Assembly (NCBI GenBank): GCA_965202915.1
Contig: OZ241847.1
Span: 181,565-245,564, forward strand
Source: Gammaproteobacteria bacterium
GTDB taxonomy: Bacteria > Pseudomonadota > Gammaproteobacteria > Eutrophobiales > Eutrophobiaceae
Length of the DNA: 64,000 bases
Direction: 5' to 3'
Position numbers and translations under genes: made by a program. Below are positions 41,670 through 56,273 of the stretch, in pieces. The notes under the pieces are model-generated. The model was not told the DNA's origin and did no database searches. It saw only the letters and a program-made list of their open reading frames with translations. Position 1 is the stretch's first letter, and each line of letters opens with the position of its first letter.

Positions 41670-44600
41670 ATGATTGAGGTAACGTACGTGACTGAGATAG
41701 GAATGGATACATATCGCACTGGGCACAAACTCCCGACTGGCCTGGGTTCCGGGGCTACCCCCCCCCCCCCCCCCCCCCCCCCGCATCCAGAGGGCCCTCG
41801 CGGGTACTTCAAGTATAAGTGCTTCGCTTTACCCCGCCGGATATTTTCGCTCCTCGGTCTGCTTGCGCTGGCTTTGTTGCCGCCGCAGTCCCTGGCGCAG
41901 ACTACTACTACCTATTCCAGTAACGACACGCCGGTTAATATACAGCGGGGCTTTGACTTTAATAACTTCGGCCCGCCTGCAGACAGTAATATAATAATCA
42001 CAGACGATAGGACTATAAGTACGATCTCTGTCTCTCTTGATATAAATTATCCTGTTGGGTCAGGACTTACTATTGAGCTGAGAGCGCCCGATGGTTCCAA
42101 TATCATACTTGTTGCTGATGCGTTCAGCCGCTTTATGCCGACCTACACTGAAACCTCCGGACTTGTAGCGCTTGTCGGTACCCGCACAGCCGGCATGTGG
42201 AGGTTGAGGGTCAGGTCACAGGAACCATTCCGAGGCATGATAAACAGTTGGTCCATAAGCGTTACCTCGCCGGGCGCCGCCCCGACCTTCGGTACTGAGA
42301 CCATCTCCCCCCAGCAGTACGCCACTGAGGGCGCCATCACCCCGTTGACCCTGCCGGCGGCCACCGGCGGTGATGGTACGCTCAGCTACAGCATTGTTGA
42401 ACCCCTGCCGGATGGGCTGTCATTTGACGCCACCACCCGCATTCTAAGCGGCATACCGAGCGCCGGCACTGAACAAGCGGCCTCGCGCTATACCTACCGG
42501 GCCGAGGATAGCGATGGTGACGTAGCGGGTTTATTGTTCACCATCGCGATTAGACCCAGAGTGACCTTTGGCAGTGCGACCATCGCCCCCCAGAATTACA
42601 GCACCGGTGCACCCATCACCCTGCTGACCCTGCCGGAAGCCAGCGGCGGCAACCCGCCGCTCAGTTACAGCATTGTTGAAGCCCTGCCGGATGGGCTGAC
42701 ATTTGACGCCACCACCCGCACCCTGAGCGGTACACCGGAGGCCGGACAACCAGCCTTGACCTATACCTACCGGGTGACGGATACCGTTAACATAACGGCA
42801 GATTTGACCTTCACCATCGAGATTACAGACACCCCGGTCGCCATGGACTTCACGGCGGACCTGTACCGAGACCCTGACGTATTCACAACGCCCACCGTCA
42901 CCATCGACTTTAACGATTTGATTGCTGATGGCACCACCTCTGATGCGGACTTGGTGGTGACCCTCATGGACTTTACCAACCCCAGCGTCATGCTGGTCAG
43001 TGGCGGCGAGATCGATGCCGCCACTGACGTCCTGACCCTGGACAGTACCAAGCTGCTGGAAGTCTCCAGCGTCGCCGGCACCGATCTCGCCCCCCATACG
43101 TTCCGCTATACCGTGACCGACGAGGGCCGCAATACCGCGACCGCCAACCTGACCCTGCGCATCGATGAGCGGCCAACCCTTTCCTATATTAATACCGAGT
43201 TTAACGTATCCGGTCGATTCATCATGTTGGGCACGGAGCCTAGCGGCGGGCGTGAACTTCTGACGCCCACGAACAGCCACACCCCGCATGGCGAGGAATT
43301 GAGAGTTGTTGCAGTGCCTAATCTTGCCAATTCTAATTTTAGGAGGCGTTTTGATCCCGTTGACGGTCGGACCATTAATGTGCTCTATACGTTTACTCCC
43401 GGCTTTACCGGTCGCGTCAGCGGCACGTTCACCGTAGGTTTATACGCCACGGCCAACTCTATTGCCAACACCATCATCCCGCTGATGAATGCCGACGTTG
43501 TTGCCGGAGACCTGCTCATCTCTGCCAGCGCAACCTTCACCTTCATTGTCCCCAGCGCCCCACCGGTGCTCACGCCGCCCGTCGTGGCCAACCCCTATCC
43601 GCCCAACCAGGAGATTGAACTGCGCTTCAGCGCCACCGATGCGGAAAACCATGCACTCAGCTTCTCCCTGGAGGCAGTTACGGGCAGTCCCCGTACCCTG
43701 CCGGCCAATGCAACCTTTGCCCCGACCGAGGCACAAGCACCCCCGGCCACCGCCACCTTCACCTGGACCCCCACCGGCGCGGACGCGGGCACCTACCGCT
43801 TTAACGTCGTCGCCACTGAAACCACGACCGCGCTCAATACAGCGCCGGCCACCACCCGCTTCCAGGTCATGCTGGTCATCGCATCGCCGCTCACCTTCAG
43901 TGGCACCACCAGCGGCGCGGTCACCGAGAACGCCCGGACCAACACCGCCGGCGGCACCCTGATGATTGAGGACCTGGCAGGTGGCGACGAAAACTTTGCG
44001 GTACAAAACGAGGTCGGCACCTACGGCACCTTCTCCATTAATGCCAACGGCGTCTGGACTTACACCCTGGACAATGCCGACGACGACACCAATGCGCTGG
44101 CCGAAAGCACCACCGTCACCGACGTCTTCACCGTCGCGGCCAATGCCCGGCCCAGCGCCACCCAGGACGTTACCATTACCATCACCGGCGCCAACGACGC
44201 CCCCACCGCCACCATCAGCGCACCGCTGAACAACGTCGAGGTCGGCACCAGTACCGTGGTCACACTCACCGGCACCGGCAGCGACCCGGACACCGGCGAC
44301 GCGATCACCCGCTATGCGTGGAGCGCCAGCCCCGCCCAGGGCAGCTTTGCCGATGCCTCCATGGCCGACACCACCTGGACCGCACCGTCTGGCGTGGGGA
44401 ACGTCGTCCTGACCCTGACGGTCACCGACGGCAACGACGCCACCGACAGTGCCACCATTACCGTCCGAGTGGTGCCGGTACCGGTCACCATCACCGGCGA
44501 CGTCATCGGTGCCGTGACCGAAGACCGGGGTGGCTTCAACCGAGCGATGGGCGACCTGAACATTACCACCAGGGCCACCTTGAGCACCTTCGTCCCGCAA

Positions 44601-47291
44601 ACCGACGTATCCGGCACCTACGGTACCTTCTCCATTAATGCCGACGGCATGTGGACCTACGACATCGACAATAGTCGTGCCGCCACCCAGAACCTGGCCG
44701 AGGGTGCCATGGCCGACGACGTCTTCACCGTCGTCGCGGCCGCCCGCAACACCGCCACGGCAATCGTCACCATCACCGTCACCGGCACCAATGAGCAGCC
44801 CACCGCCACCATCAGCGCCCCGACGAACGGTGCGACGGTGAATGCCGGTGTCCCGGTCCCGCTCACCGGCACCGGCACCGACGTCGACACCGGCGACTCA
44901 ACCCTTTTAAGTTACCAGTGGAGTACCACGTCCCCGACCCAGGGCAGTTTCGCCAATGCCACTCAGTCCACCACCACCTGGACCCCGTCGGACACTGCGG
45001 TGGACACCGACGTCACGCTGACCCTGACCGTCACCGATGCCAGCGGCGCCGCCAATGACTCCGCAACCGCCACGGTCACCGTCCGGGTAACGGAAGCAAC
45101 GCTCACCATCAGCGGCGACACCGCGGGCGCGGTCACCGAAGATGATGACGCCAGCAACGTCGCGAGCGGCGCTCTGGGCATTACCACCCCCCTCGCTGAC
45201 GACACCTTTGCGGCACAAAACGAGGTGGGCACCTACGGCACCTTCACCATCGCTACCAACGGCGTCTGGAGCTACACCCTCAACGACGACGATGAAGACA
45301 CCAATATGCTGGCCGAAGGCGCCCCCACCGTCACCGACGTCTTCACCGTCACGGCCAATGCCCGGCCCAGTGCCACCCAGGACGTCACCATTACCATCAC
45401 CGGTGCCAACGACGCCCCCACCGCCACCATCAGCGCACCGCCGAACAACGTCGAGGTCGGCACCAGTACCGTGGTCACACTCACCGGTGCCAACAGCAGC
45501 GACCCGGACACCGGCGACGCGATCACCCGCTATGCGTGGAGCGCCAGCCCCGCCCAGGGCAGCTTTGCCGATGCCTCCATGGCCGACACCACCTGGACCG
45601 CACCGTCTGGCGTGGGGAACGTCGTCCTGACCCTGACGGTCACCGACGGCAACGACGCCACCGACAGTGCCACCATTACCGTCCGGGTGGTGCCGGTACC
45701 GGTCACCATCACCGGCGACGTCATCGGTGCCGTGACCGAAGACCGGGGTGGCTTCAACCGAGCGATGGGCGACCTGAACATTACCACCACGGCCGTCTTG
45801 AGCACCTTCGTCCCGCAAACCAACGTATCCGGCACCTACGGCACCTTCTCCATTAATGCCGACGGCATGTGGACCTACGACATCGACAATAGTCGTGCCG
45901 CAACCCAGAACCTGGCCGAGGGCGCCATGGCCGATGACGTCTTCACCGTCGTCGCGGCCGCCCGCGCCACCGCCACGGCAATCGTCACCATCACCGTCAC
46001 CGGCGCCAATGAGCAGCCCACCGCAAGCATCAGCGCACCGACGGACGGTGCGACGGTGAATGCCGGCGTCCCGGTCGCGCTCACCGGCATCGGTACCGAC
46101 GTCGACACCGGCGACCCGGCCAGTCTGAGTTACCAGTGGAGTACCACGCCCCCGAACCAGGGCAGTTTCGCCAATGCCACCCTGGCCACCACCACCTGGA
46201 CCCCGTCGGACACCGCGGTGGGCACCGACGTCACGCTGACCCTGACCGTCACCGATACCAGCGGTGCCGCCAACGACACCGCGACTGCCACGGTCACCGT
46301 GCGGGTAACGGCAACGACGCTCACCATCAGCGGCACCGCCACCACCGGCGCGGTCACCGAAGATGATAACGCCAACAACACCGCAAGCGGCGACCTGGAC
46401 ATAGCCACCACCCTCGCTGACGCCACCTTCGTCCCGCAAACCAACCTGTCCGGCGTCTACGGCTTTTTCTCCATTGATGCCGACGGCAACTGGAATTACC
46501 GGCTGGACAACGATGACGTCGACACCCAGGCCCTGGCCTCGGACGCCACCGCCCCCGACGTCTTTACCGCACGGGCCAGTGCCCGGCCCGGCGTCACTCA
46601 GGCCGTCACCCTCACCATCACCGGCGCTAATGACGCGCCCACCGTGACCATCGATACGCCGGCGGATGACACCGCAACCAGCGTCGGCAACCCGGTCACG
46701 CTCACCGCCACCGGCGCTGACGTCGACACCGGCGATGAGGCTGGTCTGCGCTACCAGTGGAGTACCACGCCCCCAAACCGGGGCAGTTTCGGCAATGCCA
46801 CCGCCGCCAACACCACCTGGACTGCACCGACCACCCCCGGTAACGTCATGCTGACCGTGACCGTCACCGATACCAGCGGCGCCGCCAACGACGCCGCTAC
46901 CGCTACCGTCACCCTCATCATCGACACGACGATGTTCCTGCCGGACCTGAGCGGCAACGGTGATTTGCAGGCGTCGGACGCCCAGATATTGTATTACCTC
47001 GGGCTGCCACCGTCGCCGAGCAGGACTCGTTTGCTGGATAGTCTGGGGGTCTCGGCCGACATGGTCGACCAGGTCAACGCCCGTGCGGAAAACTGGCAAA
47101 ATCAGGAGCCGCTGTCGGACCTCAACGGTAACGGCGAAAGGGACCGGCAGGACGCCCAAATTCTTTACTACACGGCACGCTTTGGCCCCCTGCTGGAGGT
47201 CAGCCCGACACTGTTGCAGGCGGTGCTGGGTGATTTGGCGAGGAACCCGACCGCGGCACTGAACAACGCCCGCAGGTTGCTTAACCGCTGA
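41670..47291 (+). CDS. Giant secreted repeat protein (putative adhesin, 1873 aa)
   Basis: Sec-type signal RRIFSLLGLLALALLPPQSLA-Q. P-domain pattern at about 41990-42270 (ISVSLDINYPVGSGLTIELRAPDGS...GMWRLRV...INSWSISV). Ig-like repeats (LSYSIVEPLPDGLSFDATTRILSG). Six modules alternate a VCBS-like motif (GTYGTFSINANGVWTYTLDN...ITGANDAPTA) with a PKD-like motif (TGTGSDPDTGD...YAWS...LTLTVTD). The C-terminus holds a dockerin-like EF-hand pair. Confidence 0.9.
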   Translation: MIEVTYVTEIGMDTYRTGHKLPTGLGSGATPPPPPPPPHPEGPRGYFKYKCFALPRRIFSLLGLLALALLPPQSLAQTTTTYSSNDTPVNIQRGFDFNNFGPPADSNIIITDDRTISTISVSLDINYPVGSGLTIELRAPDGSNIILVADAFSRFMPTYTETSGLVALVGTRTAGMWRLRVRSQEPFRGMINSWSISVTSPGAAPTFGTETISPQQYATEGAITPLTLPAATGGDGTLSYSIVEPLPDGLSFDATTRILSGIPSAGTEQAASRYTYRAEDSDGDVAGLLFTIAIRPRVTFGSATIAPQNYSTGAPITLLTLPEASGGNPPLSYSIVEALPDGLTFDATTRTLSGTPEAGQPALTYTYRVTDTVNITADLTFTIEITDTPVAMDFTADLYRDPDVFTTPTVTIDFNDLIADGTTSDADLVVTLMDFTNPSVMLVSGGEIDAATDVLTLDSTKLLEVSSVAGTDLAPHTFRYTVTDEGRNTATANLTLRIDERPTLSYINTEFNVSGRFIMLGTEPSGGRELLTPTNSHTPHGEELRVVAVPNLANSNFRRRFDPVDGRTINVLYTFTPGFTGRVSGTFTVGLYATANSIANTIIPLMNADVVAGDLLISASATFTFIVPSAPPVLTPPVVANPYPPNQEIELRFSATDAENHALSFSLEAVTGSPRTLPANATFAPTEAQAPPATATFTWTPTGADAGTYRFNVVATETTTALNTAPATTRFQVMLVIASPLTFSGTTSGAVTENARTNTAGGTLMIEDLAGGDENFAVQNEVGTYGTFSINANGVWTYTLDNADDDTNALAESTTVTDVFTVAANARPSATQDVTITITGANDAPTATISAPLNNVEVGTSTVVTLTGTGSDPDTGDAITRYAWSASPAQGSFADASMADTTWTAPSGVGNVVLTLTVTDGNDATDSATITVRVVPVPVTITGDVIGAVTEDRGGFNRAMGDLNITTRATLSTFVPQTDVSGTYGTFSINADGMWTYDIDNSRAATQNLAEGAMADDVFTVVAAARNTATAIVTITVTGTNEQPTATISAPTNGATVNAGVPVPLTGTGTDVDTGDSTLLSYQWSTTSPTQGSFANATQSTTTWTPSDTAVDTDVTLTLTVTDASGAANDSATATVTVRVTEATLTISGDTAGAVTEDDDASNVASGALGITTPLADDTFAAQNEVGTYGTFTIATNGVWSYTLNDDDEDTNMLAEGAPTVTDVFTVTANARPSATQDVTITITGANDAPTATISAPPNNVEVGTSTVVTLTGANSSDPDTGDAITRYAWSASPAQGSFADASMADTTWTAPSGVGNVVLTLTVTDGNDATDSATITVRVVPVPVTITGDVIGAVTEDRGGFNRAMGDLNITTTAVLSTFVPQTNVSGTYGTFSINADGMWTYDIDNSRAATQNLAEGAMADDVFTVVAAARATATAIVTITVTGANEQPTASISAPTDGATVNAGVPVALTGIGTDVDTGDPASLSYQWSTTPPNQGSFANATLATTTWTPSDTAVGTDVTLTLTVTDTSGAANDTATATVTVRVTATTLTISGTATTGAVTEDDNANNTASGDLDIATTLADATFVPQTNLSGVYGFFSIDADGNWNYRLDNDDVDTQALASDATAPDVFTARASARPGVTQAVTLTITGANDAPTVTIDTPADDTATSVGNPVTLTATGADVDTGDEAGLRYQWSTTPPNRGSFGNATAANTTWTAPTTPGNVMLTVTVTDTSGAANDAATATVTLIIDTTMFLPDLSGNGDLQASDAQILYYLGLPPSPSRTRLLDSLGVSADMVDQVNARAENWQNQEPLSDLNGNGERDRQDAQILYYTARFGPLLEVSPTLLQAVLGDLARNPTAALNNARRLLNR
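41758..41782 (+). repeat. Homopolymeric tract of 25 C inside the 5' end of the giant gene (translated as Pro8)
   Basis: Direct count: ccc at 41758-41760 plus 22 c at 41761-41782. It lies downstream of all candidate start codons (41670, 41688, 41703) and upstream of the signal peptide. Confidence 0.95.
43890..46925 (+). repeat. Intragenic tandem repeat array: about 609-nt modules organised as about 1.2-kb super-repeats (period 1215/1218 nt), two copies nearly identical
   Basis: Off-frame track ORFs recur at an exact +1218 offset (44318 vs 45536; 44312 vs 45530; 44638 vs 45856). Hand alignment of 44121-44330 with 45336-45548 shows only a few substitutions and one 3-nt indel. Confidence 0.9.
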
Positions 47292-47660: not shown

Positions 47661-49271
47661 TTAAGTGGGGTCAATGATTCCTTCGCCAATCATGCGAATC
47701 GCGGTAACACTGGGGACAAAAAAGTAATCTCCTCCCCTTGTTTCCACAAAGCGAGGGAGGTTGCTGCAGAATAAAGGAGCATCCTGACCATTTTCAGGAT
47801 CGGCTTCGATCATGGTCCGGCCCGCTGGTTTTCCATTCTCAGTTGAATGGTTTCCTAATAAAGGGTCCTTGTCGTTTGATAGTTTAAAGTCATTTCCATA
47901 GTTGATCCATTGCTGCTGCAAAAATTCAAATTGCCTTTTAATGCTGGTATTGAGTGCCATAAAAATGATGCCGTGTTCTCCATCGTCCTTAGTCGGATCT
48001 TTTACTTCTCCATACGGCAGGCCGCGCCTCGCGATACGACGCCGATTGTCCAAGGCTCCGGGTGTGTTAAATGGTTTTTCCTTTGCCTTGTCTTTCACAA
48101 ACTCTAAATATCCACGAGGGTTATTTCTGCGAACGTGGGCACCGAAGGGACATCCTGCTCCATCCAGGTCGTGGTTGTAATCAAAGGCAACGAGTCTTTT
48201 TTTAAGCTCTTCTAACTCTTCCTGAGCCTGTTTGGCGGCCGCTTTATTATTGGCGGCCCTGGCTGCGTCTCGTTTAGCCCTGGTCTCACTGATAGTTGTA
48301 ATGAATTGATCTGCCTCTTCCCGGGTGGGAAAGGTGGTGATAGGGGCTCCATTTTTCCACCTTCCTGCAAATTTGGCGGCAAGCATATCTTTTCCACCCG
48401 GCAAATCTTTGCCTTTCTCTTCTAAATAGCGGTTAAAACTGCCTACGTTTTCATGCAGTTTTCGATAAACCATGAACGTTCCATTGAAAGAGAGCAGGCG
48501 CGGCTCAGGGGCGATGGGGTATTCCTGCAATTCATCTCGATGTCCTAAAATGAATTCTCCGGTTCCCAAGGGCTCCCATCCCTCACGAGTAGAGGGATCT
48601 AAACGGGTGGGCTTTCCTCCGCCTATGACACTGATGCCGGTTTTGATACATCCTTCAAAATAGGGGTCGCTAATTCCATCGGTATAACCGAAGTGTTCTT
48701 TAGGGGTGGGATTACCGTTTTCATCAAAAACGGCGGAGGCCGCTTGATACTCTTGATTCTCCCCCTGGTGTCCCAGCAGTTGTTCCACGCCTCCTTTTGT
48801 GCGGTCTTTGTGATCACAAATTACTTGATAGCGTTCTTTTAACGCGTTCTTATTTTGGGCGTTGATTGTGATTAAAATATCCACCGGGTTCTTCCAAATC
48901 GGGTCCCAGTTTTCCGGTGCACTGGCTTCATCGTCTCCCAGAATATTGATGCGGTCCTTCATTCCCATAATAAATTCTTCAGGAAAGCTATTCAGCGATT
49001 TAGTGGGCACGCCTAAGTGTTTTAATCCTTGAAAGGTAAAAGCGATATTTGTTGTAATTTGCGGGATTTTTGTTTTGTCTTCCTCTGAGCTTTTAGGATT
49101 CCATGGGGCGCCGGTTGTAATGAGATCAAGCAGGTTAAGGAGAAATTGGCGACCTGCGTCGCCTTGATGGACCCGATAGAAAACATAGCGGGCATAGGGG
49201 AAACCAAAACGGCCGTATCCTTTGATCACGTTGCCCTGAATATCATGCAAATCGAGTGCCGTGTTTGTCAT
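47661..49271 (-). CDS. DyP-type haem peroxidase (large, 536 aa, no signal peptide)
   Basis: Contains LHDIQGNVIKGY, the GXXDG motif FGYTDGISDP, the proximal-His region GAHVRRNNPR, the distal-Arg region RRGLPYG, and FEFLQQQW. It has a ~30-aa Ala/Lys/Glu coiled-coil insert. Confidence 0.9.
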   Translation of the reverse strand: MTNTALDLHDIQGNVIKGYGRFGFPYARYVFYRVHQGDAGRQFLLNLLDLITTGAPWNPKSSEEDKTKIPQITTNIAFTFQGLKHLGVPTKSLNSFPEEFIMGMKDRINILGDDEASAPENWDPIWKNPVDILITINAQNKNALKERYQVICDHKDRTKGGVEQLLGHQGENQEYQAASAVFDENGNPTPKEHFGYTDGISDPYFEGCIKTGISVIGGGKPTRLDPSTREGWEPLGTGEFILGHRDELQEYPIAPEPRLLSFNGTFMVYRKLHENVGSFNRYLEEKGKDLPGGKDMLAAKFAGRWKNGAPITTFPTREEADQFITTISETRAKRDAARAANNKAAAKQAQEELEELKKRLVAFDYNHDLDGAGCPFGAHVRRNNPRGYLEFVKDKAKEKPFNTPGALDNRRRIARRGLPYGEVKDPTKDDGEHGIIFMALNTSIKRQFEFLQQQWINYGNDFKLSNDKDPLLGNHSTENGKPAGRTMIEADPENGQDAPLFCSNLPRFVETRGGDYFFVPSVTAIRMIGEGIIDPT

Positions 49272-49335: not shown

Positions 49336-50034
49336 TCATGGGGTGGTTGAGCCTGCTCGCCACGTTGGCCCTGATGTGTTATCGGGTTGAGTTCGCGCGA
49401 CAAATTCTTGAAAGGCTTTTTGCAAGTCTGCGTCACTTTTCCCCTGTTGTTGGTACACAAACCTGGAAAATTCCTGTTTTAAATAGAGGCCTTTCAGATG
49501 GGCCGCCAATGGCTCGTCGTCTTCCTCTGTTTCAGGATCTACTGAACCGTTAAAGAAAAAAGTGGTTTCCACCTGGCACTTTTTGATGTATTCCACAAAA
49601 CCTGTTTCATCCTTGACTTTGTGAAAACCCACACAGTGTTCAAAAACGTGTTCTAATTCTTTTGAGGCCGCATTCCACGCTCCTTCCAGATAGGCGTCCA
49701 AATCTCCGTAAAAATTGGAGGCAAATACTAAATATTTTGATTTTAAATGATCTTCTAAAACTGAAATCTTTCCATAAAAAATGTATTGAAACCATCTTTT
49801 AAACAGCCCCCAATCTTTTACCGCAGGTTCTCCTCCCTGATAGGGGACGTCATTCAAAATATAAAATCGGCATAAATAGGTATTGGGGACTTTTGCCATC
49901 GGGCTTTTTTCATTGGTTCCCAAATCCTGCAGGCGACCGCGCATTATGGACGCATAGGAAGTATTTTGATGACTTCCATTTTTGATTGGACACAGGGTGG
50001 TAAGCCCATAGGCTTTTTTATTGATGTTTGGCAT
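49336..50034 (-). CDS. Uncharacterised protein, paralogue 2 of the DyP-cassette pair (232 aa)
   Basis: It shares three colinear motifs with the upstream ORF: M-x-N-I-x-x-KAY...P-I; R-(W/F)-x-I-(V/L)-N-x-x-P; Y-(M/L)-x-F-x-SNF-x-G-x4-Y. No TM helix or signal peptide. Confidence 0.7.
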   Translation of the reverse strand: MPNINKKAYGLTTLCPIKNGSHQNTSYASIMRGRLQDLGTNEKSPMAKVPNTYLCRFYILNDVPYQGGEPAVKDWGLFKRWFQYIFYGKISVLEDHLKSKYLVFASNFYGDLDAYLEGAWNAASKELEHVFEHCVGFHKVKDETGFVEYIKKCQVETTFFFNGSVDPETEEDDEPLAAHLKGLYLKQEFSRFVYQQQGKSDADLQKAFQEFVARTQPDNTSGPTWRAGSTTP

Positions 50035-50061
50035 TTTGCTCTTTGGTTTTTTGCTCTTTGG

Positions 50062-50703
50062 TTAAGGGGTCTCTTTTCGTCTGCGATTCTCAACGGCTTC
50101 ACTGGCTAAACTGACTATGGGAGTGGGAGCCATTACGCTGAGATCATGTTGTAAATCGGTAAGTAATTGATTGTATTGTTTTCGAAATTCCCCCGGCGAA
50201 CAACTTCCGGTTCCCGCAACAAACTTATTGAGTGCCACCTTCACTTTTTTGCCTGATTTGACGTCGTTAGAGGAAGCGAGCGGATAGGCATTATAATAAT
50301 GATTAGTCCACACTTGATTATAGGTAATGTAATTATAAAATGCCTGCTCAGGAATGGAATTGGGGTAACGAATATTTTTAGCCCAGAAAAGGTCCAAGCC
50401 GTAGGGAATGGCCGTAGAAAAGGAATCAACGTATTGTTCCCAACTTCCATTAAAATTGCTGAAAAAAAACATGTAGTTATAATTCAGATCTTCCCTGGGT
50501 TGTTCCTCTGACAGCCGAGGAAATTTATTGACTATGGTCCAGCGGGCATAATGGATTAATGACAGGGTTTGTAACCCGGCCCGGCCAGACTTAAAGAACT
50601 TTGTTCCTCCCACCCAAAAAATGATTTTATTCAACCACGTCAGCCTTTTACGAATGGGGGTGACCACGTTCATTGCATAGGCTTTGCCTGCAATATTGGA
50701 CAT
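50062..50703 (-). CDS. Uncharacterised protein, paralogue 1 of the DyP-cassette pair (213 aa)
   Basis: Contains MSNIAGKAYAMNVVTPI, LIHYARWTIVNKFP and NYMFFFSNFNGSWEQYVDSF. It is aromatic-rich with no TM helix or signal peptide. It lies 27 nt upstream of its paralogue. Confidence 0.7.
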   Translation of the reverse strand: MSNIAGKAYAMNVVTPIRKRLTWLNKIIFWVGGTKFFKSGRAGLQTLSLIHYARWTIVNKFPRLSEEQPREDLNYNYMFFFSNFNGSWEQYVDSFSTAIPYGLDLFWAKNIRYPNSIPEQAFYNYITYNQVWTNHYYNAYPLASSNDVKSGKKVKVALNKFVAGTGSCSPGEFRKQYNQLLTDLQHDLSVMAPTPIVSLASEAVENRRRKETP

Positions 50704-50723
50704 TTTTTCTCCTTATTCTCTAA

Positions 50724-51008
50724 TTATACGTCAAATTCAATATTTAGATGAGTGGGAAAAGCACCTTGCATTTGTAGTTTCCCGGCGTCTCCCTCGGCTC
50801 GTCGTAAATTTTTTTGTTTTAACAGGGGGAGAAGAATTCCGGGAATTTGCACTTGGTTGATATATTCACCAAAACAAGTATGTATGCCATAGCCATAGTG
50901 CATATATTCGTGGGGTGGGCGATCAAGACGAAAGGAATCAGGATTTTGAACGTCGTTGCGATCACCCCAATAGTTCAAAAGACTCATGCATTTATCCCTG
51001 TATTTCAT
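50724..51008 (-). pseudogene. C-terminal stub (94 aa) of a cytochrome P450
   Basis: Contains the PERF-like NPDSFRLDRP and the Cys-ligand loop HYGYGIHTCFG, but nothing of the preceding ~300 residues. An in-frame TAA lies 9 codons upstream of the ATG, inside AT-rich promoter DNA. Confidence 0.75.
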
Positions 51009-51027
51009 CCTTGGTATTGATAATAAT

Positions 51028-51055
51028 AGTATAGCTTTAAACTATAAATTGTCAA
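51028..51055 (-). promoter_or_regulatory. Near-consensus sigma70 promoter driving the P450-stub/paralogue/DyP cassette
   Basis: The minus strand reads TTGACA (51055-51050), a 16-nt spacer, then TATACT (51033-51028). It lies about 20 nt upstream of the ATG at 51008. Confidence 0.55.
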
Positions 51056-51113: not shown

Positions 51114-51150
51114 CTCTGCAATGGGAATATCTGTAGGAAATGATTCATCA

Positions 51151-51420
51151 ATGAAACTTAACAAATTTTTTGTGCCGTTGTTTGCGTGTGTTTTGTTTAT
51201 CGCGTTCCAGAATGACGTTAATGCGGATGAACAACCCCGGACGCCCGCCACTGAGTCCAACCCTCTTGTTTTGCCCGATGAGGATCAGGATGCGGAAGAG
51301 CAGTGCCTTACCGTATGCAGGCAGTGGGGCCAGGATTGTACCCTCAATCCGCGCACCGGCGCCCGCAAATGCAGACGGGTTTGCAAGCAGTTCGGTGAGG
51401 AATGCTTTACTGACTTGTGA
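51151..51420 (+). CDS. Small secreted twin-CX3CX6C protein (89-aa precursor)
   Basis: ATG at 51151 with AGGAAA 10 nt upstream. Signal peptide MKLNKFFVPLFACVLFIAFQNDVNA, then an acidic linker. Next come CLTVCRQWGQDC and CRRVCKQFGEEC, an internal duplication of C-x3-C-x6-C. Confidence 0.7.
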   Translation: MKLNKFFVPLFACVLFIAFQNDVNADEQPRTPATESNPLVLPDEDQDAEEQCLTVCRQWGQDCTLNPRTGARKCRRVCKQFGEECFTDL

Positions 51421-51826: not shown

Positions 51827-53116
51827 TTGACGATTAAACCGCCGGCTGAGGGTGAAAAAATCACTATTCACCAGGGAGTACTCAAGGTGCCGGATAAACC
51901 TGTGATCCCTTATATTGAAGGCGACGGCATTGGGCCGGACGTCTGGCGCGCCACTGAAAAGGTATTGGACGCGGCGGTGCAACGGGCTTATTCCGGTGAC
52001 AGGGAAATCAAGTGGATGGAGGTCTATGCCGGTGAAAAGGCCCACCAGTTGGCCGGTAACTGGTTGCCGGATGACACATTGGACGCCTGTCGTGAATATC
52101 TGGTGGCGATTAAAGGCCCGCTGACCACGCCGATAGGCGGTGGCTTTCGGTCGCTCAACGTGGCACTCAGGCAGATACTGGACCTGTACGTTTGTCTGCG
52201 GCCGATTAGATGGTTTAACGGCGTGCCCTCGCCGATTAAGAACCCGGCATTGGTTGATATGGTGATCTTTCGGGAGAATACCGAGGATATTTACGCCGGT
52301 ATTGAGTTTGAAACCGGTTCCGAGGAGAATGCCCGCTTCCTTGAATTTTTTAAAGATACGTTTCCCACCCTGTTTCAGAAGATTCGCTTCCCTGAATCAT
52401 CGGGCATAGGGATTAAACCGGTTTCCAAACAGGGGACGGCAAGACTGGTTAGGGCGGCCATTCAGTATGCGGTTGATAATGGGCGCAAGAGTGTGACCAT
52501 GGTGCATAAGGGCAATATTATGAAATTTACCGAGGGCGCGTTTCGTAACTGGGGCTATCAACTGTCTGAATCGGAGTTCCCGGAGCACACCTATAGCTGG
52601 GAGCAATGGCAACGTACCGCCGCGGAGAAGGGTTCCGGGGCCGCCAATGAGGAGCAGGAGCAGGCGCTGTCGGCCGGTAAGATCCTGATTAAGGATGCGA
52701 TTGCCGATATTACCCTGCAACAGGTGCTTACCCGTCCCTCTGAATTTGACGTGATCGCGACGATGAATCTGAATGGCGATTATTTGTCCGATGCGCTGGC
52801 GGCGCAGGTTGGCGGCATAGGCATTGCCCCGGGGGGTAATATTAACTATGACACCGGCCATGCGATTTTTGAAGCCACTCATGGCACTGCCCCCAAATAT
52901 GCCAATTTGGATAAGGTCAATCCGGGTTCATTATTACTTTCCGGTGAGATGATGCTGCGTTATCTGGGCTGGACGGAGGCCGCGGACCGGGTTATTGGCG
53001 CCATGGATAAAACCATTGCGGACAAGACCGTGACTTATGATTTTGCCCGGCTGATGGATAATGCCAAAGAAGTAAAATGCAGTGAATTTGCGGACGTTCT
53101 GATAAGTAATTTATAG
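51827..53116 (+). CDS. icd: NADP-dependent isocitrate dehydrogenase
   Basis: 429 aa with a TTG start preceded by GGAGAG. Contains [14 protein letters not shown], the AceK-target region [12 protein letters not shown], and [10 protein letters not shown]. Confidence 0.96.
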
Positions 53117-53126
53117 GGGCAATATC

Positions 53127-54872
53127 ATGCCGTCACAAGCGCATGGTGACTTAATAGCGGAATGCTCGCAACTTATCTATGATGGTTTCATCGATTATAA
53201 TAATCGCTTCCATCGTATCACCCGCCGGGCCCAGACCCGGTTTGAAAAACGCGACTGGAAAGGTCATCAGCGGGACGTGGTTGAGCGCGTCGATCTCTAC
53301 GAAAAATCAGTGCGCCGCGTGGTGCTTGAACTGCGCCGTACCATGGGCGCCCATATTAATGATTACCAGCTTTGGAATGAAATAAGAAATTACTTTGGTG
53401 AACGTCTGCTTGAAGTGCCGGACGTCAGTTTTATCAAGACGTTTTTTAATTCAACGACCCGCCGCATCTTCGGCACGATAGGCACTGATCCCAAGCTGGA
53501 GTTTATCGCCGCCGATTCGGTCGATGATCAGGAAATGGCCGCGTCGCTCAATATCCGGCGCTATCCCTACTGGGATTCGGTAAGACGCATCTTTGAAACC
53601 ATACTGGCCGATTTTTCATTTCGTAAACTGCCCTATAATGATCTGGGAAGTAACGCCGAACATATTGCCGCGGTGATAAAGGCTTATTTCAATACCGACC
53701 AATCCCTGGCCATAGGCATACGCCGATTTGAATTTATTAATTCGTTTTTCTACCAAAACGCCCGTGCCTATCTTGTTGGCAGAATTATTCTGGCCGACAG
53801 CATTGTGCCTCTTGTTATTGCATTCAAGAATGAGGACGACGGGGTTTGTGTTGACGCGGTATTACTTACTGAGCCGGAGATCAGTGTCGTATTTGGCTAT
53901 ACCCGGTCTTATTATTTTGCCGATCCCAATTCGGTAATAGGCGCGGTTTATTTCCTGCATTCGATACTCAAAAGCAAGCCCATTGATGAGTTGTACACAG
54001 TGCTGGGACGATTGCGTCAGGGCAAAACCGAGCGCTATAGAATCTTTACCCAGCATATGCGCCGGAGCAGCGATCAATTTGTTCACGCCGCCGGCGATAA
54101 GGGCCTGGTGATGATCGTCTTTACCTACCCCTCCTATGATTTGGTGTTTAAGGTAATACGCGATAAATTTGGTTATCCAAAGGCCATGTCGCGCAAAGAC
54201 GTGATCGGCAAATATAAATTGGTATCGGAACACGACCGTGCCGGGCGTTTGATCGATACGCAGGAGTTTCGCAATCTTGAATATAAGATCGATCGTTTTT
54301 CGGATGCATTGCTGGACGAGTTATTATCCGAAGCGGCCGACACCGTCGAGATTGAGGGCGATAATCTGCTGTTGGGTCACGTTTATATAGAAAGACGGGT
54401 GCGGCCGCTGAATCTGTATATTAATGAGGTGGCGGATGACAAGGCCGGTTTGGCGATCATGGATTACGGCCAGGCGATCAAGGATTTGGCCAATACCAAT
54501 ATTTTTACCGGTGATTTGTTGCTAAAGAATTTTGGCGTAACCAAGCATAATCGGGTGGTCTTTTATGATTATGATGAGGTTTCATTGATCACCGAATGCA
54601 ATTTTCGTGATATTCCCGAAACCAATAATATGGACGATGAAATGCAGGCGGATCAATGGTATTACGTCGGCGAAGACGATATTTTTCCGCAGGAGTTTAT
54701 CAAGTTTTTATCGATGAATGAGAAATTGCGGCGGACGTTTATGAAATATCATGGCGATCTGCTGAGTGCCGATTACTGGCGCGCGATCAAGGCCCGGCTT
54801 TTGGCCGGGGAAGCGTCACCGGTGATCCCGTATGAAAGCTCGGTGATCACCGGCGTTCCCGCGCGACAATGA
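53127..54872 (+). CDS. aceK: Isocitrate dehydrogenase kinase/phosphatase
   Basis: 581 aa with full-length AceK-like colinearity (FDGFIDYNNRFHRITRRA..., ...FPQEFIKFL...). It lies 10 nt downstream of icd. Confidence 0.93.
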   Translation: MPSQAHGDLIAECSQLIYDGFIDYNNRFHRITRRAQTRFEKRDWKGHQRDVVERVDLYEKSVRRVVLELRRTMGAHINDYQLWNEIRNYFGERLLEVPDVSFIKTFFNSTTRRIFGTIGTDPKLEFIAADSVDDQEMAASLNIRRYPYWDSVRRIFETILADFSFRKLPYNDLGSNAEHIAAVIKAYFNTDQSLAIGIRRFEFINSFFYQNARAYLVGRIILADSIVPLVIAFKNEDDGVCVDAVLLTEPEISVVFGYTRSYYFADPNSVIGAVYFLHSILKSKPIDELYTVLGRLRQGKTERYRIFTQHMRRSSDQFVHAAGDKGLVMIVFTYPSYDLVFKVIRDKFGYPKAMSRKDVIGKYKLVSEHDRAGRLIDTQEFRNLEYKIDRFSDALLDELLSEAADTVEIEGDNLLLGHVYIERRVRPLNLYINEVADDKAGLAIMDYGQAIKDLANTNIFTGDLLLKNFGVTKHNRVVFYDYDEVSLITECNFRDIPETNNMDDEMQADQWYYVGEDDIFPQEFIKFLSMNEKLRRTFMKYHGDLLSADYWRAIKARLLAGEASPVIPYESSVITGVPARQ

Positions 54873-54878
54873 GGCCGG

Positions 54879-56273
54879 TTAATTGCCGGTTGGGTGATAC
54901 CAGGCCAGGTGTTCGTGTAATTTGACGACTTCACCAATAATAATCATGCTGGGCGGCTTCACCTGCCGTTGTTTTGCCATAGCCGGCAGGGTTTGCAGGC
55001 TGGCGATATGGACTTTTTGACTGGCGGTGGTGCCCCGCTCGATGATCGCCGCGGGCAGATCCGGGTCCAGGCCGCGATGGATTAATTCATGACTCAATTT
55101 TTCAACGCCGTGCATGCCCATATAGATCGCAATAGTTTGTTGCGGCTGTATCATTGCGTCCCAATTCAGTGACAGCTTTTCGTCCTTCAGGTGGCCGGTG
55201 ACAAATAAGCAGGATTGGGCGAAATCCCGGTGGGTGAGCGGGATGCCGGCATAGCTGGCGCAGCCACTGGCGGCAGTGATGCCGGGCACGACCTGGAACG
55301 GCACGCCCGATTTGGATAGTAATTCTATTTCTTCGCCGCCGCGACCAAAAATAAATGGGTCGCCGCCTTTTAGGCGCAATACCCGTTTCCCCTGTCTGGC
55401 CAGGTCGACCAGTAATTGATTGATTTCAGCTTGTGGAATGGTGTGTTGATCCCGCTGTTTGCCGACAAATAAACGTTCGGCGTCTTTACGCACCAGTGCC
55501 AGCACTGCTTTTGCCACCAGACGGTCGTACAGGACAACGTCGGCCTGCTGCATCAGGCGCAGGGCTCGGAAGGTTAATAAATCCGGATCGCCGGGGCCGC
55601 CGCCGACCAGATAGACCTCGCCCTCGGTGCTGACGTTATCATTGTCCTGAGTGAGATAGTGTTCCAGGGTGGTGATCGCGGCCTGCTCCTGGCCGGCGTA
55701 TAACATCTCTTCAACCGGGCCTTGTAATACCTGTTCCCAGAAGCGCCGTCGTTGTCGCATATCGGTAAAACGCCGGCGCACCCGGTCGCGAAATCGGGCA
55801 ATAATTTTGGCCAGTTTGCCGTAAGAGGCGGGAATGTAGGTTTCCAGACGGGCGCGCAGCAGACGCGAGAGTATGGGCGATACTCCGCCGGAGGATACGG
55901 CAATGAAAACCGGGTCGCGATTAACGATAGACGGCATAATAAAGGTGCAGAGTTCGGGATTGTCAACGACGTTCACCGGTATGTTTTCCGCCCGCGCCAA
56001 TTCGGACACCCGTCGGTTGACTCGGAGGTCGTTGCTGGCGGCGATCACCAGGCAATTGCCGGTTATTAATTCGGCCTTGAATCCGGATGCCACGGTTTTG
56101 ATCCGCTGCTGCTCGGCCAGCGTCTCGATGGCGGCGTTAAACATGGGAGAGACTACGGTGACGTTTGCTCCAAACTCGACCAGTTGGGTTATTTTACGCA
56201 GCGCGACTTCACCGCCGCCGACCACCAGACAGGGGCGGCCGCTGATCTGCATGGATATCGGTAGATAGGCCAT
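54879..56273 (-). CDS. cysG: Siroheme synthase (precorrin-2 dehydrogenase/ferrochelatase plus uroporphyrinogen-III C-methyltransferase)
   Basis: 464 aa. The N-terminal Rossmann segment [11 protein letters not shown] and the C-terminal SUMT domain [15 protein letters not shown]...[15 protein letters not shown] are present. Confidence 0.95.

Follow-up and report, generated by a model that had tools for sequence, protein, structure and literature searches.

P1 and P2, two paralogues of no named family encoded directly upstream of a DyP-type haem peroxidase

We examined a 64,000-nucleotide (nt) stretch of contig OZ241847.1 from a gammaproteobacterium of the family Eutrophobiaceae (GenBank assembly GCA_965202915.1, positions 181,565 to 245,564), referred to here as the window, and concentrated on two adjacent open reading frames (ORFs), P1 and P2, and on the gene for a DyP-type haem peroxidase directly downstream of them. 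P1 and P2 resemble each other and belong to a large protein superfamily that matches none of the family libraries searched, and the gene order P1>P2>DyP is retained across many bacterial phyla. This conservation, together with natural proteins in which the three products are fused into one chain, suggests that a P1-P2 heterodimer is very probably the obligate, physically associated partner of this DyP subfamily.

The initial annotation of the window had called P1 and P2 as tandem ORFs of 213 and 232 amino acids (aa), had aligned their products colinearly at three short motifs and had proposed an old duplication maintained as a pair. Both ORFs proved exact as called, on the minus strand, and all three motif pairs were matched to each other both in a joint MAFFT alignment of 84 family members and in a profile-profile alignment (hhalign). 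BLASTP aligned the C-terminal 125 residues of the two proteins (E 2e-6, 22% identity), and their local Smith-Waterman score of 77 was reached by 0 of 2000 shuffles (32.4 +/- 5.3; z 8.4). The regions around motifs 1 and 3 were each matched by 0 of 2000 shuffles, whereas motif 2 alone was weak and not significant (55 of 2000 shuffles). When family profiles of P1 and P2 (43 relatives each) were compared by hhalign, the match extended over the full length (P1 residues 1-197) with a probability of 97.7% and an E value of 1.7e-12, which argues against chance similarity. P1-like and P2-like lineages could be told apart across the whole superfamily, and the order P1>P2 was always retained, as expected of an old duplication kept as a pair. 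Judged by these alignments, P1 and P2 are true paralogues that arose by an ancient duplication. Their description as aromatic-rich proteins without transmembrane helices was also borne out: Phe, Trp and Tyr make up 15.5% of P1 and 14.2% of P2 compared to 9.7% of the DyP, and the maximal 19-residue Kyte-Doolittle means were 0.82 for P1 and 0.39 for P2, with no stretch near transmembrane level.

We found 1828 homologues of P1 (58-76% identity, all unnamed and without Pfam domains) and 689 of P2 (likewise all unnamed); the only names given to them in the source databases are "hypothetical" or "uncharacterized." A merged P1+P2 profile retrieved 2763 clusters at 50% identity (E <= 1e-3) among 1.84 billion representatives, and a pattern scan of one genome per species located relatives in at least 276 species. 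Neither P1 nor P2 matched any family of Pfam-A 2025 or NCBIfam 20.0 at E <= 1, and when the 84 aligned members were scanned against these libraries, no family recurred (at most 4 of 84, noise matches). In the fusion proteins described below, library matches were confined to the DyP or catalase parts, with none in the P1 or P2 parts. A defence-system or phage origin was considered and rejected, as there was no match for P1 or P2 in PADLOC 2.0 or PHROGs 4. The P1 profile had no match among all Protein Data Bank (PDB) chain sequences; the P2 profile matched 37 residues at the N terminus of CD-NTase cGAS-like synthases (E 0.032), which we dismissed as noise. In the literature, beyond EfeUOB, DtpA and encapsulin, we found neither a DyP partner of the P1/P2 kind nor a mini-catalase context described. 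By the libraries searched (InterPro, CDD and the AlphaFold DB clusters lie outside this scope), the P1/P2 family and its three-gene module are undescribed. The two outcomes that the initial annotation had named as fatal to its proposal, an insignificant alignment or placement in a known annotated family, were both checked, and the opposite was found in each case. These analyses define a sizeable new protein superfamily with a clear signature, a confident structural model (for P2) and no significant structural neighbour.

The P1>P2>DyP cassette, its fusions and its variable fourth gene

The 536-aa product encoded downstream of P2 scored above the Pfam cut-offs for both DyP_N (52.9 bits; cut-off, 27.5) and Dyp_perox_C (23.1 bits; cut-off, 20), and it reached 89.6 bits with NCBIfam TIGR01413, below the cut-off of 100.5. 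Its closest solved structure is that of Deinococcus radiodurans DrDyP (8re3, E 5.7e-48), and fungal D-type DyPs match it at E values of 1e-16 to 1e-35. The catalytic residues Asp198 (in GYTDG), the proximal His379 and Arg416 are present and are invariant in 77-78 of 78 cassette DyPs. The protein starts with MTNTALDLHDIQGN and has neither a signal peptide nor a twin-arginine signal. These sequence criteria identify it as a genuine DyP-type peroxidase of class V (former class C); a helical insertion specific to its subfamily lies at about residues 320-365. We also considered whether P1 and P2 could be split-off DyP domains and rejected this idea: hhalign gave a probability of 7% for the P1/P2 profile against the 78 cassette DyPs, and P1 and P2 had no DyP_N or Dyp_perox_C match, no GXXDG motif and no proximal-His motif.

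To place the pair in its genomic context, we analyzed 80 loci with hidden Markov models (HMMs) for P1, P2, DyP, P450 and mini-catalase. The three genes occurred as P1>P2>DyP on one strand in 77 of the 77 loci with enough sequence, drawn from at least ten phyla, the remaining 3 being cut by contig ends. Carriers were found among the Gamma-, Beta-, Alpha- and Zetaproteobacteria, Bacteroidota, Cyanobacteria, Planctomycetota, Myxococcota, Acidobacteriota, Nitrospirota and Calditrichota; those that can be cultured include Halomonas heilongjiangensis, Vibrio nigripulchritudo, Herminiimonas and Mucilaginibacter. The reverse approach, starting from homologues of the DyP, gave the same result, with P1>P2 directly upstream in 4 of 4 loci. 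Median intergenic gaps were 14 and 16 nt, and in many cases the start of a gene overlapped the end of the one before it (by 1 to 11 nt). The three proteins co-evolve, as judged from the correlation of their pairwise distances (r was 0.81 for P1-P2, 0.88 for P1-DyP and 0.85 for P2-DyP), with P1 the most conserved (mean p-distance, 0.38) ahead of DyP (0.43) and P2 (0.47). The sole broken P2 among the 80 loci, in Mucilaginibacter sp. SP1R1 (L032, 7666-8329), is split into two overlapping ORFs; this is a frameshift or a sequencing error. Clustering the flanking ORFs all against all returned, beyond the P450 and mini-catalase genes described below, only synteny specific to Oxalobacteraceae and antisense artefacts. 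Thus, in the loci examined, one large and phylogenetically widespread DyP subfamily was never found without two paralogous partners, which offers a concrete handle on the role of this DyP.

Natural fusions were counted among the 150 best superfamily representatives. Single-chain P1-P2 proteins accounted for 39 of the 150, with the domains in the same order as the genes; 3 were P1-P2-DyP fusions of 860-964 aa, and 1 was a P2-DyP fusion of 665 aa. About 7 carried, besides P1-P2 (or P2-P1), a domain of ~330 residues that is related to the mini-catalase of the MAP_2744c type (3e4w, E 8.6e-4), and on one cyanobacterial contig a mini-catalase-P2-P1 fusion is followed directly by a DrDyP-like DyP. 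By the Rosetta-stone principle, the P1-P2, P1-P2-DyP and mini-catalase fusions are evidence of binding between P1 and P2 and of a physical partnership of the pair with a haem enzyme. The heterodimer suggested in the initial annotation thus gains indirect evidence, and the tie to DyP, which it had read from adjacency, now extends to an invariant gene order and to covalent linkage. As a separate observation, in one 562-aa P1-P2 fusion (P0246) a stretch of ~80 residues, with two hydrophobic segments that resemble membrane helices, breaks up the P2-like half, a hint that some family members may be membrane anchored.

The cassette often has a fourth member. A cytochrome P450 gene (~400 aa when intact) flanks it in 22 of the 80 loci, either upstream of P1 or downstream of DyP, and a free-standing mini-catalase (~340 aa, MAP_2744c-like; Pfam Catalase, 33.5 bits against a cut-off of 25; 3e4w, E 3.9e-5) flanks it in 22 others; the two were found together in 0 of 80. 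The same P1/P2 module is therefore linked to mini-catalases and accompanied by P450s as well as tied to DyP. The MAP_2744c type of mini-catalase reportedly prefers organic hydroperoxides, and we count the reuse of the module with it among the reasons for the small-molecule role proposed below. The cassette P450s are distant from characterised P450s and have no ferredoxin or reductase gene beside them. We rejected a CYP74-like type lacking the I-helix Thr for them: they read GAIPTTSK, with the Thr kept and the acidic residue replaced by Pro in most.

In the window, the P450 gene is reduced to a remnant upstream of P1. In tblastn searches this remnant matched residues 322-396 of the 400-aa P450 of a cyanobacterial locus (L004) with 56% identity (E 1e-27) and the P450 of a second locus (L003) with 48% identity (E 3e-22); upstream of it there was no further tblastn match to intact cassette P450s. 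Neither the remnant nor the wider four-component module had been noted in the initial annotation. In another locus (L093, 6431-9433), the P450 gene downstream of DyP is split in two by a Transposase_mut gene while P1-P2-DyP is intact, evidently a second independent case of P450 decay. Since the P450 is truncated in the window and split in L093, the fourth gene is dispensable, with P1-P2-DyP as the core.

Predicted fold and conserved residues

An AlphaFold2 model of P2 built from the merged P1+P2 alignment was confident, with a predicted local distance difference test (pLDDT) score of 86.4 and a predicted template-modelling (pTM) score of 0.77. The N-terminal part of the model consists of a strand (residues 8-17), a helix (27-36), two strand pairs (52-60/64-67 and 93-96/101-109) and a second helix (112-131), and the C-terminal part consists of helices 143-153, 176-195 and 201-215. 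The two strand pairs form a long hairpin that holds a lineage-specific insertion. This insertion (residues ~71-92) and another at ~165-175 are absent from most homologues, recur only in the closest relatives (P0122 and P0123 and, in part, P0177) and were modeled with lower confidence (pLDDT 62-71). The model suggests a ferredoxin-like beta-alpha-beta-beta-alpha N-terminal core followed by a helical C-terminal half, and P1 and P2 probably share a divergent ferredoxin-like alpha+beta module.

A Foldseek search of the P2 model against the PDB and BFVD (viral models) returned no significant neighbour (best E, 0.087). One coherent group stood out among the weak matches, namely, dimeric alpha+beta-barrel (DABB) proteins (E 0.09-1.2; probability 0.2-0.66; target-normalised TM score, ~0.5), comprising methylmuconolactone isomerase, hydroxynitrile lyase, SP1, ABM monooxygenases and "dimeric ferredoxin-like" proteins. 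The order of secondary structure elements in the P2 model fits a DABB core, except that the monomer model lacks strand 4. The Foldseek matches of the P1 model (PII-like proteins, E > 0.3) were meaningless.

DABB proteins of known structure, such as 4-methylmuconolactone methylisomerase (3hfk), Passiflora hydroxynitrile lyase (5xzt), SP1 (1si9) and ABM monooxygenases (4dn9), show the same beta-alpha-beta-beta-alpha order as the N-terminal ~130 residues of the P2 model, and P1 and P2 are, like them, small, aromatic-rich and probably dimeric. The conserved His, Tyr and Arg are of the kinds that typically serve catalysis among DABB proteins. For two sheets packed into a barrel, as in a DABB dimer, the 39 P1-P2 fusions provide indirect evidence. 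Unlike DABB proteins, P1 and P2 have twice the length and end in a helical half of ~100 residues without equivalent there; they also have no sequence-profile match to DABB proteins and would form an obligatory hetero-pair, not a homodimer, and they are tied to a haem peroxidase. A second parallel lies in the CDE superfamily (chlorite dismutase, DyP and EfeB), whose members contain two ferredoxin-like halves that arose by ancient duplication and form a pseudo-dimer. The P1+P2 pair and its fusions would repeat this architecture, although P1 and P2, in contrast to CDE proteins, have no detectable homology to the cassette DyP (the 7% hhalign probability given above).

P1 is recognized by IHYARW followed by FFSNFNGSWxQYVDSF and by the N terminus MSNIAGKAYAM, which is conserved from Met1; a hydrophobic helical segment follows its first strand. 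The P2 signature comprises LCPI, SPMAKVPNTYLCRF, KYLVFxSNFxGDLDxYL, HCVGF and KKCQV. Over 187 domain instances, the best-kept positions were P16 and the strand-2 motif H-[FY]-A-R-W (His in 82%, Tyr in 11%; Arg in 90%). Further kept positions (in P1/P2 numbering) are Y77/Y101, F80/F104, G86/G110, Y91/Y115, F122/F146 and Y125/Y149, together with W107. The two kinds of domain differ in what they retain: P2-like domains keep R56 (100%), C134 (96%), P16 (95%) and a His at position 53 (84%; Tyr in the subfamily of the window), and P1-like halves keep the aromatic signature FxSNxNG...Y...F...W. This asymmetry looks like that of a pseudo-dimer in which one half would hold the ligand-contacting residues. 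A tautomerase-like mechanism using the N-terminal Pro of P2 (MPN...) was considered and rejected; Pro2 is not invariant, and the N terminus of P2 is internal in the fusions.

Possible roles of the P1-P2 pair

The physiological substrates and roles of DyPs, especially of the cytoplasmic class C/V enzymes of bacteria, are an acknowledged open question (PMC8197335). Reviews describe operon partners of DyPs as EfeU/EfeO (iron uptake), Sco/ECuC with DtpA (copper trafficking) and encapsulin, for which class-P DyPs are cargo, and no others (PMC8197335, PMC9719856). As in those systems, the DyP gene of the cassette shares an operon with dedicated nonperoxidase partners, and there the partners define the role of the enzyme. 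The known partners are transporters, metallochaperones or a capsid-like shell, whereas P1 and P2 are two paralogous soluble proteins without a known domain, and neither the window cassette nor the genes called in related loci contained an encapsulin or EfeU/EfeO domain. The DyPs of the known operons are moreover Tat-exported (twin-arginine-exported) class I or encapsulated class P enzymes, in contrast to the cytoplasmic class-V DyP of the window, and P1 and P2 are also found fused to DyP.

On balance, we favour by some measure the explanation that P1 and P2 form a heterodimer that serves a cytoplasmic DyP as an obligate partner, probably by handling a small molecule that the enzyme consumes or produces. 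We infer the heterodimer, its ternary complex with DyP and its biochemical role, which together can be described as follows. P1 and P2 would pair as a pseudo-two-fold heterodimer, which would bind the DyP encoded directly downstream to give a cytoplasmic P1-P2-DyP complex expressed from one tightly coupled, horizontally mobile operon; a P450 or a mini-catalase is often added as an alternative fourth haem enzyme. The P1-P2 pair would act on the same small molecule as the haem enzyme (an organic substrate, a hydroperoxide or a radical product), either binding or converting it in a pocket that might be lined by His/Tyr53, Arg56 and Cys134 of P2 and by the aromatic cluster. We favour a small-molecule role because the nearest, though weakly matching, fold relatives are cofactor-free small-molecule enzymes, because the conserved residues are of acid-base and aromatic type and because P450s and catalase-related proteins are known alternative catalysts of hydroperoxide chemistry (PMC8124189, PMC5617202). 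That the pair handles or converts a substrate, as opposed to carrying haem or redox equivalents, is a narrower claim, which we put forward tentatively.

Several observations weigh against this explanation. The AlphaFold2 model of P1, built from its own shallow alignment, was poor (pLDDT 59); the similarity of P2 to alpha+beta-barrel proteins is insignificant (best E 0.087, TM score ~0.5); and the 80-120 sequence pairs available are too few for an analysis of inter-protein coupling. The genes that flank the cassette differ between lineages, and the window cassette has neither a mini-catalase nor an intact P450, so that their contribution is dispensable here. Finally, the association of the pair with three haem enzymes could equally mean that a supply of haem or electrons is the common denominator.

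This last point leads to the main rival, in which P1/P2 is itself a haem-binding module, either a b-type redox protein that delivers electrons to the oxidised form of DyP, mini-catalase or P450, or else a store or chaperone that supplies haem to them. Haem is the sole thing common to the three enzymes, and its ligands in P1/P2 would be a His on strand 2 of P1 and the corresponding Tyr of P2 (two His residues in most relatives), perhaps joined by Cys134. His, Tyr and Cys are classic haem ligands, and many alpha+beta-barrel proteins bind haem, including IsdG, HemQ, Cld and DyP itself. The prevalence of His or Tyr at the strand-2 position beside a conserved Arg (82%, 11% and 90% of the 187 domains, respectively), the 96% conservation of Cys134 in P2-like halves, the near-invariant Cys-Pro dipeptide of P2 and the lack of an adjoining ferredoxin or reductase gene for the cassette P450s would all fit such a module. 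However, there is no sequence or structural match to known haem-binding families, the Cys-Pro dipeptide is not conserved outside the subfamily of the window, and a His and an Arg three residues apart on one strand would face opposite sides and so could not both line one site. Nor would a 1:1 fusion with the client be expected of a transient chaperone. We consider a haem-binding role unlikely overall.

Ranked below it, and in our judgment improbable, is the proposal that P1 and P2 are noncatalytic structural or regulatory subunits that bind neither substrate nor cofactor and govern the oligomerisation, localisation or activity of DyP; they might, for instance, keep the enzyme switched off in the absence of a signal. 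In DrDyP, the closest solved relative, the haem is six-coordinate and low-spin and there is no activity at physiological pH, and its authors raise the question of the trigger (PMC10820274); the hydrophobic helical hairpin of P1 and the membrane-like segments of P0246 also hint at membrane tethering. Yet P1 is more conserved than the enzyme it would regulate, residues typical of a ligand site (His/Tyr, Arg, Cys, Tyr and Trp) are kept in both halves across a very old superfamily, and the reuse of the module with an unrelated mini-catalase speaks against a DyP-specific regulator. Among the roles that the initial annotation had suggested, namely, substrate carrier, haem chaperone or regulator, none gains specific support, and a pure regulator or a transient chaperone is what fits least well with a stoichiometric fusion to the enzyme. 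The absence of any functional link, with P1 and P2 as unrelated passengers on a mobile island that also bears the DyP gene, or as proteins that resemble each other by chance, could be argued from the low G+C content (0.457) and apparent horizontal acquisition of the region and from the varying flanking genes; it is effectively refuted by the fusions to DyP, together with the order retained in 77 of 77 loci across phyla, the overlapping starts, the distance correlations (r 0.81-0.88) and, for chance similarity, the profile-profile E value.

Within the favoured small-molecule explanation, a bolder version, to which we give rather little credence, would make P1-P2 a new cofactor-independent enzyme with an alpha+beta-barrel-like fold that makes or rearranges an organic hydroperoxide or radical and hands it to the attached haem enzyme. 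The nearest analogies are the catalase-related allene oxide synthase/hydroperoxide lyase proteins of corals and cyanobacteria, which are fused to a lipoxygenase as the source of their organic hydroperoxide substrate, and the CYP74 P450s; P450s of this kind and mini-catalases are known alternative solutions to the same hydroperoxide chemistry (PMC5617202, PMC8124189). P1-P2 is similarly fused to a mini-catalase in several proteins, and P450 and mini-catalase are mutually exclusive as fourth genes; the likeness is one of analogy only. No lipoxygenase similarity was found in P1, P2 or their neighbours, the mini-catalase has its closest match in the MAP_2744c type (3e4w, E 4e-5 to 9e-4) and not in allene oxide synthases, and the cassette P450, unlike CYP74, is of a generic bacterial type that keeps the I-helix Thr. 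If this version were true, the cassette would amount to a self-contained pathway of hydroperoxide or oxylipin type in bacteria, mechanistically comparable to the fusions of lipoxygenase and allene oxide synthase in corals, and would provide the first defined physiological substrate route for class-V DyPs. More generally, if P1/P2 is catalytic or binds haem, it would be a new player in bacterial peroxide and oxidative chemistry and could matter for the use of DyPs as biocatalysts.

The cassette in the window

The features of the window around the pair, among them three housekeeping neighbours (51827-56273), are listed in Table 1. P1 and P2 are separated by 27 nt and P2 and DyP by 64 nt, with all three genes on the minus strand, and a strong AAGGAG ribosome-binding site (50714..50709) lies 5 nt 5' of the P1 ATG. 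The P1 and P2 reading frames share their start Met with hundreds to thousands of homologues, and the short ORFs that overlap P1, P2 and DyP in other frames had no support.

Table 1. Positions of the cassette genes and of other features in the window
Feature	Position	Strand	Length	Remarks
1873-aa repetitive surface-protein-like gene	41670-47291	+	1873 aa	internal repeats of several hundred residues; local G+C 0.60-0.66
Class-V (former class C) DyP-type haem peroxidase	49271..47661	-	536 aa	third cassette gene
P2	50034..49336	-	232 aa	ORF; P2-like half of pair
P1	50703..50062	-	213 aa	ORF; P1-like half of pair
P450 remnant	50724..51008	-		last ~80 codons with Cys-ligand loop YGYGIHTCFG; first ~320 codons missing; HMM match 50727-51041
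Sigma-70-type promoter-like site	51028..51055	-		TTGACA-16 nt-TATACT, 11/12; consensus scan, pattern match only
99-aa ORF	51121-51420	+	99 aa	signal-peptide-like start MKLNKFFVPLFACVLFIAFQNDVNA; Cys-rich acidic C terminus; no PHROGs match
Isocitrate dehydrogenase	51827-53116	+		identified from translation only; housekeeping neighbour
Putative isocitrate dehydrogenase kinase/phosphatase ORF	53127-54872	+		identified from translation only
Siroheme-synthase-like gene	54879-56273	-		identified from translation only

The promoter-like site lies at the upstream edge of the P450 remnant, and such sites occur in the region as often as expected from shuffling. It may be a candidate promoter for the remnant and P1-P2-DyP, in which case the deletion within the P450 gene may have brought it beside the cassette. 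The G+C content dips to ~0.457 over 47.6-51.6 kb, matching the extent of the cassette, between flanks of 0.50-0.66. This dip is consistent with horizontal acquisition of the cassette region, as is the spread of the proteins across phyla at ~60% identity. Identical copies of the cassette turned up only in metagenome contigs (SRR23871860 and SRR23871863). The repeat gene is convergent with DyP and ends 370 nt from the DyP stop codon. On the other side of the cassette, the 99-aa ORF occupies the site expected for the missing part of the P450 gene.

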